Source of the DNA: a virus
Taxonomy: Duplodnaviria; Heunggongvirae; Uroviricota; Caudoviricetes
IMG/VR virus record: IMGVR_UViG_2778261298_000002
Span: 1-41,462 of that record
Direction: 5' to 3' (one strand)
Length of the DNA: 41,462 nt
The notes under the pieces are model-generated. The model saw only the letters and a list, made by a program, of their open reading frames with translations. It was not told where the DNA came from and did no database searches. Each line of letters starts with the position of its first letter. Within the stretch, counting starts at the first letter, position 1. Positions 1 to 41,462 of the stretch are shown here, piece by piece. Position numbers and translations under genes: made by a program.

Positions 1-2
1 CA

Positions 3-18
3 CTGTTTATCCATACAG
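3..18 (+). promoter_or_regulatory. LexA (SOS) box, distal copy
   Basis: CTGT-N8-ACAG palindrome (aCTGTttatccatACAGt) about 45 bp upstream of the dinI-like start. Confidence 0.5.
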
Positions 19-30
19 TTAAAAATAATG

Positions 31-46
31 CTGTATACAAACACAG
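31..46 (+). promoter_or_regulatory. LexA (SOS) box, proximal copy
   Basis: tgCTGTatacaaacACAGta closely matches the E. coli LexA consensus taCTGT-(AT)4-ACAGta; followed by RBS GGAGGG and ATG at 62. Confidence 0.7.
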
Positions 47-61
47 TATGGAGGGACTTTT

Positions 62-310
62 ATGCGTATTGAAATCTGCATAGCCAAAGAAAAAATGACT
101 AAAATGCCAACCGGTGCTGTGGATGCGTTAAAGGAAGAATTAACCCGACGCATCAGTAAGCGTTATGACGATGTTGAGGTGTTAGTAAAAGCCACCAGCA
201 ATGATGGCCTTTCTGTTACACGCACCGCAGATAAGGATTCTGCAAAAACTTTTGTTCAGGAGACTCTGAAAGATACCTGGGAATCTGCTGACGAGTGGTT
301 TGTTCACTAA
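62..310 (+). CDS. DinI-like DNA-damage-inducible protein (82 aa)
   Basis: Translation [11 protein letters not shown]...[15 protein letters not shown] matches the DinI family in size and conserved C-terminal ETWESADxWF motif; preceded by LexA boxes. Confidence 0.8.
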
Positions 311-5838: not shown

Positions 5839-6253
5839 GCGTTATCGCACTCCACAGATCATCAAAAGAAATCATTACCGGTCCATCACGACGCCAGAGG
5901 GTGATACTGTTACCCAGCTCATTAATCCCGGTGCGGCGGATATCCAGATCAATACGGGACACCACGCCGTCATCAGTCATCCATTGCAGGCATTCGCGGA
6001 TATATCCCCTTACCGTCTGCACCAGCTGATTGGTCAGTTTGCTGCGCTGAAGCAGCCACAGTCGGGAGCCGTAACGGTCATTCTGTACCGCAGGCCAGGT
6101 ATCCCCCCACCATCCCATCGGGACGTCGGCATTGTCATCAGGCTCCGCCCGCCGCCAGGTGAACAGGGAAATCACCACGGCGCGGGTCAGCGGATCCAGC
6201 GGTGCGCTGGCGCAGGTGCGTTTACCGTTCACCGTCAGCCACAGTTCCATCAT
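5825..6253 (-). CDS. Baseplate protein (Mu gp46 / GPW-like)
   Basis: 142 aa; synteny between gpV-like and gpJ-like genes. Confidence 0.6.
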   Translation of the reverse strand: MMELWLTVNGKRTCASAPLDPLTRAVVISLFTWRRAEPDDNADVPMGWWGDTWPAVQNDRYGSRLWLLQRSKLTNQLVQTVRGYIRECLQWMTDDGVVSRIDLDIRRTGINELGNSITLWRRDGPVMISFDDLWSAITHGGQ

Positions 6254-23056: not shown

Positions 23057-24109
23057 TTATTTCCCCACCAGTTCACTTACCTCTTTCACCGTCTGATTAA
23101 ACCGCTCTGACTCAAGTTCAACACCTAACGCCCGACGCCCCAGCGCCATTGCTGCTTTTATTGTGGAACCGGATCCCATAAAGAAATCAGCAACCAGATC
23201 ACCAGGTCGACTACTGGCATTGATTATTTGCCGGAGCATATCCGCCGGTTTCTCGCACGGATGTTTACCCGGATAGAACTGAACGGGCTTATGCGTCCAG
23301 ACATCGGTATAAGGCACGGAAACTGATACGGAGAAATAGCGCCGGAGAGATTTAAACTCATCCAGCAATTCAGAATATTTGCGATTCAGTGAATCATAAG
23401 ATGCCACCAGCTGGTGGTGTGGTTGTTCCAGTTGTTGTTCCTGAAACTTCTCTGCCGCTATACGGGAAAACAGTGCCTGTAACTTCCGATAGTCAGCCTC
23501 ATTCGGCAACTGCCACTGACTGGCACCAAACCAGTGGGAAACCATATTTTTCTTACCTGTGGCTTCGGCAATTTGTTTTGCCGTTATACCCAGTTCGGCA
23601 CGAGCATCCCTGAAATACGATATCAGCGGTGCCATTATGTGCTGTTTGAGTTCCCTTTCTTTTGCCGCATAGCCGTCACTTTTGCCGCGATATGGCCCCT
23701 GGTAATGTTCAGCAAACAGAACGCGCTCTGTGGCAGGAAAATATGCGCGCAGACTTTCTTTATTACACCCATTCCAACGTCCGGACGGCTTCGCCCAGAT
23801 GATATGGTTAAGCACGTTGAAACGTTCACGCATCATGATCTCAATATCAGATGCCAGGCGATGCCCACAGAACAGGTAAAGGCTTCCGGCAGGTTTCAAC
23901 ACCCGCCAGAACTGGGCCAGACAGTGGTCCAGCCACTTAAGGTAATCTTCGTCCCCTTTCCACTGATTGTCCCAACCGTTAGGTTTCACCTTGAAGTAAG
24001 GCGGATCGGTAACAATCAGGTCAATGGAATCATCAGGCAGGGACTGAATAAAATGCAGGCAATCAGCGTTGATTAAATCAACACTGTTTATTTTTACAGT
24101 ATTTTTCAT
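23057..24109 (-). CDS. Orphan DNA methyltransferase (amino-MTase with DPPY motif)
   Basis: 350 aa; N-terminal IVTDPPY catalytic motif and C-terminal FxGSGST AdoMet motif; no adjacent restriction gene. Confidence 0.8.
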   Translation of the reverse strand: MKNTVKINSVDLINADCLHFIQSLPDDSIDLIVTDPPYFKVKPNGWDNQWKGDEDYLKWLDHCLAQFWRVLKPAGSLYLFCGHRLASDIEIMMRERFNVLNHIIWAKPSGRWNGCNKESLRAYFPATERVLFAEHYQGPYRGKSDGYAAKERELKQHIMAPLISYFRDARAELGITAKQIAEATGKKNMVSHWFGASQWQLPNEADYRKLQALFSRIAAEKFQEQQLEQPHHQLVASYDSLNRKYSELLDEFKSLRRYFSVSVSVPYTDVWTHKPVQFYPGKHPCEKPADMLRQIINASSRPGDLVADFFMGSGSTIKAAMALGRRALGVELESERFNQTVKEVSELVGK

Positions 24110-27295: not shown

Positions 27296-27685
27296 TCAGG
27301 CGGCTGCACCCGCCGTTTTCTCGTACTTACTGATAGTGATCTCGACCTTCCCTTCCGGGATAACCGGTCCCCACTCCACCAGCATTCTTTTCACCTGACT
27401 GTCGTCTTCCCACACACCCGCGTGGGTCAGGGCGTCAAACAGCGCCTTGTTATAGTTGTCCAGATCGCGGATCCGGTTATCCGGAGGAAACAACACGATC
27501 TCCACTGAAGCAGGTGCCGACGTTGGTTTTGGCAGACGACGTAACTGCTCAACTATTGCTGCACACGCCGCGCTCTGGAATTTGCGCCCCGCCGCGCTTA
27601 TCAGGCTCTTACCTGCAAACGCCCCTTTGTTGGGGTGTCGCCAGTACGTGTTCACGCTGGGCGGGAAAGGCAGAATCAGCTTCAT
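27296..27685 (-). CDS. rusA: Holliday-junction resolvase RusA
   Basis: 129 aa; N-terminal LPFPPSVNTYWR and RDLDNYNKALFDALTHAGVWEDDSQV match the RusA family. Confidence 0.8.
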   Translation of the reverse strand: MKLILPFPPSVNTYWRHPNKGAFAGKSLISAAGRKFQSAACAAIVEQLRRLPKPTSAPASVEIVLFPPDNRIRDLDNYNKALFDALTHAGVWEDDSQVKRMLVEWGPVIPEGKVEITISKYEKTAGAAA

Positions 27686-28008
27686 ACTTTCAGACCCCTC
27701 TCATGTAACCAGTGGGCTGCACGCAGCCTGGCGTTTTCCTCACCGGCAAGCAGTGAGCGGATAATCCCGACCGCCTCGCTGTCGTCGTCCTTCACCGCGG
27801 TATGAAGCGTTATCCCCCGGGCCACACCACGCTTTATCGTGATGACGCCTTTTTTCTCCAGTGCGCGAAGATGCTCCACCGCTGCATTCACTGAACGATA
27901 TCCCAGCATGGTTGCCACCTCCTGATTGGTTGGCGGAAAGCCACGCTCTTTCTGGTAAGAAATCAGCATATCCAGCACCTGCTGCTGGCATTGAGTTAAC
28001 GTCGTCAT
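27682..28008 (-). CDS. LexA-like DNA-binding domain protein lacking the S24 peptidase domain
   Basis: 108 aa; LTQCQQQVLDMLISYQKERGFPPTNQEVATMLGYRSVNAAVEHLRALEKKGVI resembles the LexA N-terminal winged helix; no Ala-Gly/Ser-Lys autocleavage module. Confidence 0.6.
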   Translation of the reverse strand: MTTLTQCQQQVLDMLISYQKERGFPPTNQEVATMLGYRSVNAAVEHLRALEKKGVITIKRGVARGITLHTAVKDDDSEAVGIIRSLLAGEENARLRAAHWLHERGLKV

Positions 28009-31394: not shown

Positions 31395-32081
31395 GTGAAA
31401 ACATTGGCAGAAAGACTAAAAAGCGAAAGAGAAAAAGCAGGAATGAGTCAGGCGCAACTAGCTGAAAAAATTGGGCTTTCACAACAATCCGTAGCGAAAA
31501 TCGAGAATGGAGAAACTCAACAGCCTCGGAAAATTAAAGAGATTGCTAAAGTGTTAGGGGTTTCTCAAAAGTGGTTGCAATTGGGCATTGAGGATAACGC
31601 GTCTTTCCCAGACCTTGTTGTAAAGGAGGCTGAAAGTACAGCATTAGATCCTGACATTTTTGCAAACATTCCAGTCCTAGATGTCGAGTTATCAGCGGGT
31701 AATGGATGTTTGGCTGAAATAGTTGAATCAACTGTAGACTGGTTCCCGCTAAGAAGGATTGATTTAAGAAAAGCTGGTGTATGTGTCTCCAATGCAAAGA
31801 TCGTAAAAATTTGGGGCAATAGTTTACTACCTGTACTTAACAATGGAGATTTTGTTGCTGTTGATGTTTCCCAAACGGTTCCTATTCGTGATGGGGATCT
31901 TTATGCCATACGTGATGGCGTATTACTTAGAGTTAAAATATTGATCAATTTACCTGACGGTGGTCTGATTCTAAGAAGTTTCAATAAAGATGAGTATCCA
32001 GATGAAATACTCACCTTCGAAGATAGGCGTTCAAGAATTCACGTTATAGGTAGAGTATTCTGGTCATCGCGCACTTGGTAA
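31395..32081 (+). CDS. CI-like repressor (HTH XRE domain plus S24 LexA-like peptidase domain), GTG start
   Basis: 228 aa; N-terminal HTH (MSQAQLAEKIGLSQQSVAKIENGE); C-terminal S24-like domain. Confidence 0.8.
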   Translation: MKTLAERLKSEREKAGMSQAQLAEKIGLSQQSVAKIENGETQQPRKIKEIAKVLGVSQKWLQLGIEDNASFPDLVVKEAESTALDPDIFANIPVLDVELSAGNGCLAEIVESTVDWFPLRRIDLRKAGVCVSNAKIVKIWGNSLLPVLNNGDFVAVDVSQTVPIRDGDLYAIRDGVLLRVKILINLPDGGLILRSFNKDEYPDEILTFEDRRSRIHVIGRVFWSSRTW

Positions 32082-33726: not shown

Positions 33727-33817
33727 GATACCACCGAGCCTGAAGTGGTGAAAAGACAGGCACATAACAGCTAAGTATTTTCAACCAGAGAGAATCCTTA
33801 GCGTTGTGGTGAATGCG
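33727..33817. repeat. 91-bp direct repeat, copy 2
   Basis: Identical to 33072-33162. Confidence 0.85.
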
Positions 33818-33947
33818 GCTCAGCGCACGCGGGTTAAGGTTGAGGCTGACAGTCGACCTTCTGTGGATACCCACCCGCCTGGTGTGCAACCTTCGCCAGG
33901 CACCGGGAGGCACCCGGCACCACAACTTTATGCTGTGTGTAGTCCTC

Positions 33948-33993
33948 GCGGTACCAGTTTGTACACTTGCTTCCGGCTGGTACCGCTCTTTTT
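33948..33993 (+). terminator. Terminator-like hairpin (10-bp stem gcggtaccag/ctggtaccgc plus T-run) in a GC-rich structured leader
   Basis: Perfect 10-bp inverted repeat with a 19-nt loop, followed by tcttttt. Confidence 0.4.
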
Positions 33994-34130
33994 ACAAAAC
34001 AGAGAAGAGCATCACCGGACGACGGGCTCATAACCCAATCCATCCGGGCGGCTGCCACCGCAGGTGTTCTTCTCTGTTTTGTGGAGAAACCAACCGACCT
34101 TGCAGGGTCGATATGATGAGGAGCAGCAAA

Positions 34131-36833: not shown

Positions 36834-37750
36834 GCAAGATTGACTATCAGGCACTGCGTGAAGCGGCGCAACTGGCAACACAGGGTGAATGGGTCGCATT
36901 TATTTCGTCTGGTACTGGTACATATGCGGTGCATACACCTGGTGATAAACGATGTGAAGACGTTATCAAATGGACCGGCTTTGATGGACAGAACAACGCA
37001 GAGAACAACGCTCGTTATATCGCAGCTTTCAACCCTGAAGTAGTGCAGGCGCTGCTGGATGAACGGGAAAGAAACCAGCAATACATCAAACGCCGCGACC
37101 AGGAGAACGAGGATATTGCGCTAACGGTAGGGAAACTGCGTGTTGAGCTTGAGGAAGCAAAATCAAAACTCAACGAGCAACGCGAGTATTACGAAGGTGT
37201 TATCTCGGATGGGGGTAAGCGTATTGCTGAACTGGAAAAACAATGCGCCGAATGGGAGCGAAAAGCATTAAGCAACTGTGAAGAGTGTGCTGCGATGGCT
37301 GAACGTATCGAAGAGATGCAGACAAAATCTGCGCCAGATTCGTTTGGCATCATCGGTGAAAATATTCGAACACAGGACAATCGAATAACGTCAGATCCCA
37401 TGTTTTGTGTGTATCAAAAGCGCGAAATCGTTGTTGATGCTGATTATGACCATGACCGGATTGTCTGGGTTGACGAAGATGGCAATGAAGCCAATAAACG
37501 CCATAGTCGTCGTCTCGAGCTACTTCATGAAAACTTTCGAGAGCCACCAGAAAAATGGCGGCGCGTTGCTGTGAAAGATATTGATGAATTCGTTACCTGC
37601 TGTTTCACCGAACAGGGTTGTAAAGACTACCTGGCAGTCAATGGTCACAATCTTCGCTTGCCATTTATATATGTAAAAAGCGGTTTCAGGAACGCTGAAT
37701 ATATCGGCATAAGAAACTGGCTTGCTGGCATTCGCATCAAAGGAGAGTGA
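36830..37750 (+). CDS. ead/Ea22-like protein
   Basis: 306 aa; N-terminal MSKIDYQALREAAQLATQGEW motif and central coiled-coil. Confidence 0.6.
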   Translation: MSKIDYQALREAAQLATQGEWVAFISSGTGTYAVHTPGDKRCEDVIKWTGFDGQNNAENNARYIAAFNPEVVQALLDERERNQQYIKRRDQENEDIALTVGKLRVELEEAKSKLNEQREYYEGVISDGGKRIAELEKQCAEWERKALSNCEECAAMAERIEEMQTKSAPDSFGIIGENIRTQDNRITSDPMFCVYQKREIVVDADYDHDRIVWVDEDGNEANKRHSRRLELLHENFREPPEKWRRVAVKDIDEFVTCCFTEQGCKDYLAVNGHNLRLPFIYVKSGFRNAEYIGIRNWLAGIRIKGE

Positions 37751-40754: not shown

Positions 40755-41462
40755 TTATTTCTCCGATTTAACCCCGAACAAATCATAAATTAATTTAGAA
40801 GTGTCTGTAAGTATTTTAATCTCTTCCTTTGAGGTTGGGTCAAACGACTTCGCGAAGCTAATTAATTGTGGTGCAGCATCTCGCATTTTGCTTAAAATAT
40901 CAGGATCGAGCGTTCCTTCATTCACCAGATGTGACATCTTATCCAGATAGCCATCAAAATTCATTTCTCCCCCATCAGCCAGACGCTTCATCTCTCCCAG
41001 GTACTTCTTCATATCACGTTGAGATAATTTTTCAAACTGAGCTTTCAGGTAGCTCTCATTATTTTCATTAATATACACTGTTTCTGATAAATCTGCGTAG
41101 GCACTAGAATATGAAAGTGAAATTAACAGCGAAGCAAATAATTTTAAGCTGTTGTCATCATGTTCCTGGCAGGCATTAACAAACGTTAAAAAACCAGAAC
41201 CTATTGCTTGAAAATGTATATTCGCTAAAGGTTCATTATCCTTAGATTCCTCATAAAATAGCTGAACCGTGGAGGGAAGGTCATTCTTAGTTTCTACATC
41301 AAAAGTACATTGTTCAATGGGCATTGCATCTTTATTATCCCCAAGATTACATATACTATTAATCGCGAAATGAAAAATAGCCCGGTCAACAACTGATGCA
41401 ATAAAGTCACGATCGTTTAAATCCTCATCAGTGCAATCGTCAATATACTTATTGACCCACAT
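40755..41462 (-). CDS. Hypothetical protein (235 aa in window; start codon sits at the window edge, may extend beyond)
   Basis: AT-rich ORF with no recognisable family. Confidence 0.4.
   Translation of the reverse strand: MWVNKYIDDCTDEDLNDRDFIASVVDRAIFHFAINSICNLGDNKDAMPIEQCTFDVETKNDLPSTVQLFYEESKDNEPLANIHFQAIGSGFLTFVNACQEHDDNSLKLFASLLISLSYSSAYADLSETVYINENNESYLKAQFEKLSQRDMKKYLGEMKRLADGGEMNFDGYLDKMSHLVNEGTLDPDILSKMRDAAPQLISFAKSFDPTSKEEIKILTDTSKLIYDLFGVKSEK

Follow-up and report, generated by a model that had tools for sequence, protein, structure and literature searches.

The gene for a DinI-like protein at the start of the DNA analysed here, a stretch of 41,462 nucleotides of phage origin that we refer to as the window, probably belongs, as judged from its sequence, to a self-contained LexA-repressed and SOS-inducible moron inside a lambdoid prophage integrated at dusA. 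The unit would combine a sigma-70 promoter that we call strong (TTGACA, a spacer of 17–18 bp and TAAAAAT) with a gene of the DinI family and a structured 3' end. A LexA-controlled dinI homologue of a prophage is a known kind of element, the gene is common and already annotated as 'DinI-like family protein', and the cassette is both real and ordinary. We did not find described the layout of its promoter, in which −35 hexamer, LexA box, −10 hexamer and a second LexA box follow each other and which is common to two subfamilies of DinI proteins.

Two predicted LexA operators bracket the −10 hexamer

The promoter straddles the left edge of the window. Its perfect −35 hexamer, TTGACA on the plus strand, occupies positions −3 to 2 (5997–6002 of locus L001, whose base 6001 is base 1 of the window), with only its last two bases (1 and 2) inside, and the stop codon TGA of the preceding integrase gene sits within this hexamer in the four bases to the left of the window. 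The −10 hexamer on the same strand is weak and was placed by a consensus scan with 10 of 12 matches either at 21–26 (AAAAAT, 18-bp spacer) or at 20–25 (TAAAAA, 17-bp spacer). A promoter scan found two promoter-like sites in the region, no more than the 2.4 expected from shuffles. The depositors of the phage mEp460 record have annotated a promoter at the same place. A Shine-Dalgarno sequence, GGAGGG at 50–55 (+), is evident on inspection 6 nt ahead of the ATG.

The earlier note had described two CTGT-N8-ACAG palindromes ahead of the dinI-like reading frame, and both are present on the plus strand, at 3–18 (CTGTTTATCCATACAG) and 31–46 (CTGTATACAAACACAG). Their description as upstream boxes is correct for the reading frame and incomplete for the promoter: as the −35 hexamer is hidden by the edge of the window, it is only with this element in place that the boxes are seen to bracket the −10 hexamer rather than merely to precede the gene. 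Both overlap the predicted promoter and start, box 1 (1–20, heterology index 5.06) by filling the spacer between the −35 and −10 hexamers, box 2 (29–48, index 4.69) by lying over the predicted start at about position 33 and the early 5' UTR.

The quality of the two sites was assessed by a heterology index of the Berg–von Hippel/Lewis type, run on every 20-mer of the window, with a matrix that was built from 24 E. coli LexA operators, that may contain small errors and whose consensus comes out as TACTGTATATATATACAGTA. These 24 operators span indices of 0.5 to 9.6, a range that includes both boxes. The same matrix assigns 4.3 to chromosomal dinI and 5.2 to recA, in agreement with the published values of 4.8 and 5.0 (PMC11228462 Table 1), which indicates that the scale is sound. 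The three best sites of the 41 kb score 4.69, 4.87 and 5.06 and the next one 9.5; operator-grade sites stand more than 4 index units clear of the background, and none at or below 8 was found in 20 shuffles. In terms of the palindrome itself, four copies of CTGT-N8-ACAG in the window face 0.47 expected ones, a number that none of 100 shuffles reached. One of these, at 37600, was rejected as a LexA site as its index of 15–17 and its location within a coding region make it look like chance. The proximal box had previously been singled out as near-consensus, a distinction that is not borne out by the comparison, as the two boxes are about equal with 15 and 16 matches to the 20-mer consensus, and box 2 has in most relatives the sequence TACTGTATACAAACACAGTA, which is nearer to the consensus than the copy in the window.

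Conservation and spread of the cassette

The segment 1–412 was matched in 3150 of 5426 complete E. coli genomes (~58%) and in 149 phage records, including mEp460, cdtI, 2H10, SKA5 and Stx1a, Stx2a and Stx2c phages. The upstream sequence is long enough for comparison in 57 IMG/VR loci and falls into 21 variants, in all of which both boxes keep their CTGT and ACAG arms unchanged. Five of the loci have an unrelated upstream context, and their homology sets in exactly at the −35 hexamer, which argues that promoter, boxes and gene move as one cassette.

The layout extends beyond close relatives. When one genome per species was scanned under the guidance of a profile, 80 loci were retrieved, where DinI-like genes of 55–98% identity in most cases carry TTGACA-CTGT-N8-[AC]CAG, a TAAA(A)T-like hexamer and CTGT-N8-[AC]CAG, although about a third of this group scored one box only. 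The dual layout was found in Escherichia, Shigella, Trabulsiella, Erwinia, Mixta and one Pantoea copy, and the TAAA(A)T-like stretch between the boxes is kept in all genera. In 33 distinct dual-box promoters, for which the search pattern had itself partly prescribed the conserved arms, the N8 core occurs in 13 variants in box 1 and in 7 in box 2. From centre to centre, the two boxes are 24 to 29 bp apart, with 28 bp in 23 of the 33 promoters and in the window, and this variability suggests that the constraint lies in bracketing the −10 hexamer rather than in the helical phase of two LexA dimers.

These observations leave an exceedingly small probability for the view that the palindromes are chance features of an AT-rich promoter and not LexA sites. 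The region is indeed AT-rich, and promoters often contain short palindromes, but no shuffle gave a site of such quality, the two sites are found 28 bp apart ahead of a DinI homologue, and their arms are kept across genera while the cores vary. The proposal that the reading frame is under two LexA operators and is in this way SOS-controlled is thus upheld, as far as site quality, promoter geometry and a layout kept across genera can predict it, and it accords with the LexA control established by experiment for dinI homologues of the Gifsy prophages (PMC3121763; PMC8072944). It had also been suggested that two boxes repress more strongly than one, which may reasonably be expected from the recN, lexA and colicin promoters. 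In such multi-operator SOS promoters more than one LexA box leads to tighter repression and later induction. There, the boxes are adjacent or overlapping downstream of the promoter, in contrast to the bracketed −10 hexamer and the offset of 24–29 bp described here. A promoter of this design, compact and portable with its two operators, would probably provide a very tight SOS switch.

The chromosomal dinI of E. coli and Salmonella resembles the prophage gene in its family, its full-length alignment, the WESAD(D/E)WF helix and a promoter-overlapping LexA operator of similar strength. It differs in its identity of about 49% to the prophage protein and in having a single credible box, which is located about 19 nt from the ATG (L162; PMC8072944 Table 1), whereas the prophage gene is distinguished by two boxes around the −10 hexamer, a consensus −35 hexamer and a different 3' UTR. 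In line with this, homologues of 44–51% identity, including chromosomal dinI orthologues, carry a single box 15–23 nt before the ATG. A second subfamily with the dual layout is found in prophages, where the genes for MsgA-like proteins of the DinI family (79–80 residues) are preceded by CTTGAAT-ACCGGATAAAAACACAGTA-TAAA-TACTGTATATCCATCCAGTA, again in the order −35, box, −10 and box. The Salmonella MsgA-like prophage proteins thus have this promoter and the 97-nt 3' element described below in common with the window, but differ by tblastn identity bins of 25–30% to its protein, by their length and by a degenerate left arm of box 1 (CCGG).

The cassette is located inside the prophage

A comparison with a stretch of E. 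coli 730V1 of 99.8% identity, where the genes are arranged in the order dusA, int, dinI-like and DUF4145, shows that base 1 of the window directly follows the end of the gene for a dusA-associated tyrosine integrase. The left bound of the window thus coincides with the end of a dusA-type integrase gene (L001 3777–6000), and its right end is formed by a host gene for a DUF2713 protein (40755–41462, −). With the integrase ending on the left and the host gene on the right, the window comprises an essentially complete dusA-integrated lambdoid prophage without int. The dinI-like gene, which the earlier note had placed beside the prophage, is in light of the host gene at the right end instead found inside, at the int-proximal end and immediately after int. 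The prophage is lambdoid with its late genes on the minus strand, and it contains genes for a CI-like repressor (31395–32081) with HTH_3 and Peptidase_S24 domains, a Q antiterminator, two DNA methylases, RusA and KilA-N, CII/CP76 and Cro/YdaS-like proteins.

The region that follows the cassette contains a gene for a DUF4145 protein (659–1354, +), which matches PHROG 1305 'DNA binding protein', has an N-terminal cysteine-rich motif and may be a moron or a defence gene. For the interval ahead of it (421–658), a search of the phage database gave no match. The DUF4145 gene stands between the dinI cassette and a tail-fibre invertase of the Pin/Gin serine type (1381–1973, −) that adjoins tail-fibre assembly genes. 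This invertase appears split into a 154-residue reading frame with a resolvase domain and a separate 32-residue frame that by eye corresponds to its HTH part, and its copy in strain 730V1 has been annotated with a frameshift. The Rfam family STnc100 matches 33773–33995 (+), where the early-left region starts, with 49.1 bits, just over its gathering score of 47.

The DinI-like protein and its predicted role

The gene at 62–310 (+) encodes a protein of 82 residues that consists of a DinI domain only. It covers all positions (1–63 of 63) of the Pfam profile DinI (PF06183) with an E-value of 1.1e-19 and 71 bits at a cut-off of 24.2, it matches PHROG 189 'RecA filament binding protein DinI' (E 1.4e-30) and its alignment with E. 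coli DinI (PDB 1GHH, 7YWA; E 3.8e-13) extends over the full length. The C-terminal acidic helix, WESAD(E/D)WF, is conserved and aligns in the copy of the window with SEILQETWESADDWFV of 1GHH, and in a family alignment of 18 sequences Glu 67, Trp 73, Glu 74, Ala 76, Asp 77, Trp 79 and Phe 80 are invariant. By inference from these features, the protein would bind RecA filaments via its acidic helix and modulate their co-protease activity.

In a lysogen, dimers of host LexA would occupy two operators of roughly the strength of recA and dinI, and their location in the spacer between the −35 and −10 hexamers and over the start would presumably prevent RNA polymerase from binding or initiating. Upon DNA damage, activated RecA would promote self-cleavage of LexA, both operators would clear and the DinI-like protein would be made in quantity. 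Its acidic C-terminal helix would then, by homology to E. coli DinI, dock on RecA filaments and alter their stability and co-protease activity, and the outcome might, speculatively, be a feedback on the timing or threshold of induction and on SOS mutagenesis in the host. Since the prophage repressor is of the autocleaving CI type with an S24 domain, which depends on RecA, additional DinI could feed back on the induction threshold or timing of the prophage itself. The effect of host DinI is dose-dependent, with filament stabilization on one side and a block of the co-protease on the other, and the prophage protein might act in either direction. If the proposed regulation applies, many E. coli lysogens, including carriers of Stx phages, would raise the dose of a RecA modulator exactly when the SOS response fires, and extra copies of dinI tied to LexA could change when, and at what threshold, prophages and toxins are induced, and could likewise affect SOS mutagenesis.

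[quoted passage not shown] Their single LexA box is needed for induction by mitomycin, and nalidixic acid induces them 5- to 23-fold (PMC3121763; PMC8072944 Table 1). The Gifsy dinI heads a LexA-controlled operon of dinI, antirepressor and irsA, and a DinI-related polypeptide is also driven by a LexA-repressed promoter in coliphage 186, whose Tum protein is a fusion of antirepressor and DinI, and in PSP3 and Fels-2, where tum is split (PMC3121763). These precedents suggest a switch in which the LexA-controlled unit would mainly express an antirepressor against a non-cleavable repressor, with DinI as a passenger. We consider such a switch to be very improbable in the window and largely refuted by its features. 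Unlike the 146-residue Tum with its antirepressor half, the protein of 82 residues carries no extra domain, the four reading frames of at least 30 residues contained entirely in the gap that extends to about position 600 have no PHROG match, leaving no conserved reading frame after the gene, the region 324–420 shows covariation of the RNA type and not coding conservation, and the segment 421–658 has no match in the phage database. Moreover, the repressor is of the CI type with an S24 domain, which would render an antirepressor unnecessary. Whereas the Gifsy genes combine a single box with a downstream antirepressor, a location near replication genes and non-cleavable repressors, the unit of the window is monocistronic, adjoins int, carries two boxes and is combined with a CI-S24 repressor; neither an antirepressor gene directly downstream of dinI nor a cognate repressor without an autocleavage domain was found here.

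The preferred reading of a LexA-controlled dinI moron leaves room for different beneficiaries of its product. Non-polar deletions of dinI in the Gifsy prophages did not measurably affect induction (PMC3121763), and a live alternative, which we regard as possible though on balance unlikely, thus assumes regulation as described but a protein that serves as a fitness factor of the lysogen without a part in the induction of its own prophage, be it in DNA-damage tolerance, in limiting mutagenesis or in a virulence role similar to MsgA. It would agree with the survival of the cassette in degraded remnants, such as the EDL933 copy adjoining ssrA (NZ_CP008957.1 3563050–3563480), which has the same dual-box promoter and the same 3' element and is devoid of an integrase, and a frameshifted copy in CFT073, and with the fact that the MsgA-like relatives have both flanks in common. 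The CI-S24 repressor, on the other hand, makes cross-talk via RecA mechanistically plausible.

A further explanation concerns the protein that occupies the operators. The prophage encodes a protein of 107 residues (27682–28008, −), located between the genes of a Dam methylase and RusA, which contains the DNA-binding domain of LexA (PF01726, E 1.7e-18) but no S24 domain. The boxes could also, or mainly, be operators for this protein, which would not be cleavable by RecA and which, once the early-right operon is on, could re-silence dinI together with SOS genes of the host. Its DNA-binding domain is complete and close to residues 4–69 of E. coli LexA (phmmer E 1.5e-15), with a recognition helix of RSVNAAVEHLRAL compared to RSPNAAEEHLKAL in LexA, and it is found in most of the top cassette phages, namely mEp460, cdtI, SKA5, 2H10, Lys8385Vzw and 15 Stx2c phages. 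However, in tallies by organism name, about 65 cassette records of Stx1a and Stx2a phages have no counterpart among the 61 records with the protein, so the link between the two is not obligatory, and their co-occurrence may reflect a shared phage lineage. Since, in addition, LexA dimerizes through its C-terminal domain, which is absent from the 107-residue protein, and one position of the recognition helix differs (Glu to Val), a role of this protein at the two boxes appears improbable.

A structured element follows the dinI-like gene

Directly after the stop codon of the dinI-like gene, a structured element of 97 nt (324–420, +) was identified, which matches its covariance model R1 with 115.5 bits. 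The model comprises 97 positions and 17 base pairs, with one copy in the window and 103 in the fetched loci. Hairpin 1, whose arms are located at 332–337 and 371–376, encloses a conserved loop of 34 nt with an invariant core of 23 nt at 342–364, which reads CATTCAATACTCGCACTATCGAA and is also given as CAUUCAAUACUCGCACUAUCGAA. Hairpin 2 (379–412) resembles a terminator, although the U tract behind it is weak in the window. Conservation of the 3' UTR exceeds that of the gene itself, as illustrated by L087 and L088, two relatives identified through the protein, where nucleotide identity is 69% in the coding sequence and 41–42% at third positions but 100% in the 23-nt core.

The predicted fold is reflected in the pattern of substitutions. 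In a model-guided alignment of 77 distinct sequences, 91.7% of the cells are paired and 16 of the 17 pairs show double changes, compared to 22–51% paired cells in slid controls, and no shuffle attains the observed covariation values. An unguided MAFFT alignment still gave 83.9% paired cells and 13 of 17 pairs with double changes. The covariance-model alignment was used as MAFFT combined with RNAalifold, when applied to the raw variants, did not recover hairpin 1 and placed the 3' arm incorrectly. The plus strand of the element folds with a z-score of −2.9, and the predominance of G-U pairs over A-C cells (93 versus 32 overall and 71 versus 18 in hairpin 2) assigns the fold to the sense strand of dinI.

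The element is widespread. It was matched in 2923 of 5426 complete E. coli genomes (~54%), and an exact 21-mer scan of IMG/VR located it at no fewer than 120 loci. Among the matches listed, 96 loci have enough upstream sequence to define their context: the element follows a DinI-like gene in 32 of them (26 with dual boxes), an MsgA-like gene in 17 (13 with dual boxes) and a partial match to the DinI family in 5, whereas the remaining 42 are orphans with neither a gene of the DinI family nor a LexA box. One orphan copy is located directly after lambda int and a hairpin, which we take to be the sib/tI hairpin of lambda, and faces the end of a tail-fibre-assembly gene.

By comparison with databases and the literature, the element appears undescribed. 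Rfam contains no plus-strand match even at E-values up to 10 and none at gathering score, and no RNA annotation was found under 60 sampled RefSeq matches in E. coli, most of which carry no feature at all, while a few overlap coding sequences called 'hypothetical protein' or 'capsid protein'. A literature search with 16-mers of the core retrieved no matching paper, and supplements on EHEC sRNAs and ciprofloxacin list no dinI-like gene. Membership in the Rfam family CssrB (RF02799), a Shigella sRNA candidate, was rejected, as the match is confined to the terminal hairpin on the opposite strand with 18.6 bits at a gathering score of 76; the 3' terminal hairpin of that family (model positions 150–180) corresponds to the reverse complement of hairpin 2.

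Hairpin 2 has a strong, covarying stem. Some relatives have a good U tract behind it (GCGGTTTTTCTTTTT), that of the window is poor (GCGGUCUCAACU), and only 27 of the 77 variants have at least 5 U within the next 8 nt. The hairpin was also seen alone after an unrelated gene (L085 2563–2607), which together with its relation to the CssrB hairpin suggests a portable and possibly bidirectional terminator-like module of lambdoid prophages.

A role as terminator would not account for the 34-nt loop of hairpin 1. The cassette might be an SOS module with two outputs, in which the core would serve as an SOS-induced riboregulator upon release or in cis, be it in the form of a 3'-UTR sRNA or sponge or as a specific recognition site for a protein or RNase, a proposal that we regard as doubtful but that makes the element a testable candidate for an unrecognized phage-borne regulatory RNA under SOS control. 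A functional precedent is provided by DinR of Klebsiella, a regulatory RNA that is released from the 3' UTR of a LexA-controlled dinI mRNA (PMC10907235), although it has no sequence similarity to the element. A K. pneumoniae locus (L120) accordingly contains a different 3' UTR without a match to R1, and homology to DinR or other dinI 3' UTRs was discarded as none was found. In a search for targets of the hairpin 1 loop within the prophage, the best non-self duplex of −26 kcal/mol fell inside the range of shuffles (−24 to −30).

An ssrA-like tail of one relative was recognized as the remnant of an att site that does not belong to the element, and ARAGORN found no tRNA or tmRNA fragment after the dinI-like gene when run on the window. 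Just past the element, a perfect palindrome of 14 bp (CCAATCATGATTGG) is located at 431–444, and in the IMG/VR variant L225, which lacks hairpin 2, a stretch similar to this palindrome (ATCATGATTGG) comes soon after hairpin 1. A third operator-grade LexA-like site of the window, CACTGTTTATTTTTACAGTA at 24082–24101 (index 4.87), is found in the late region downstream of Q, where it overlaps codons 3–9 of a reading frame for an N6/N4 DNA methylase (23057–24109, −); the methylase loci retrieved around this site were all of 99–100% identity (80 of 80).
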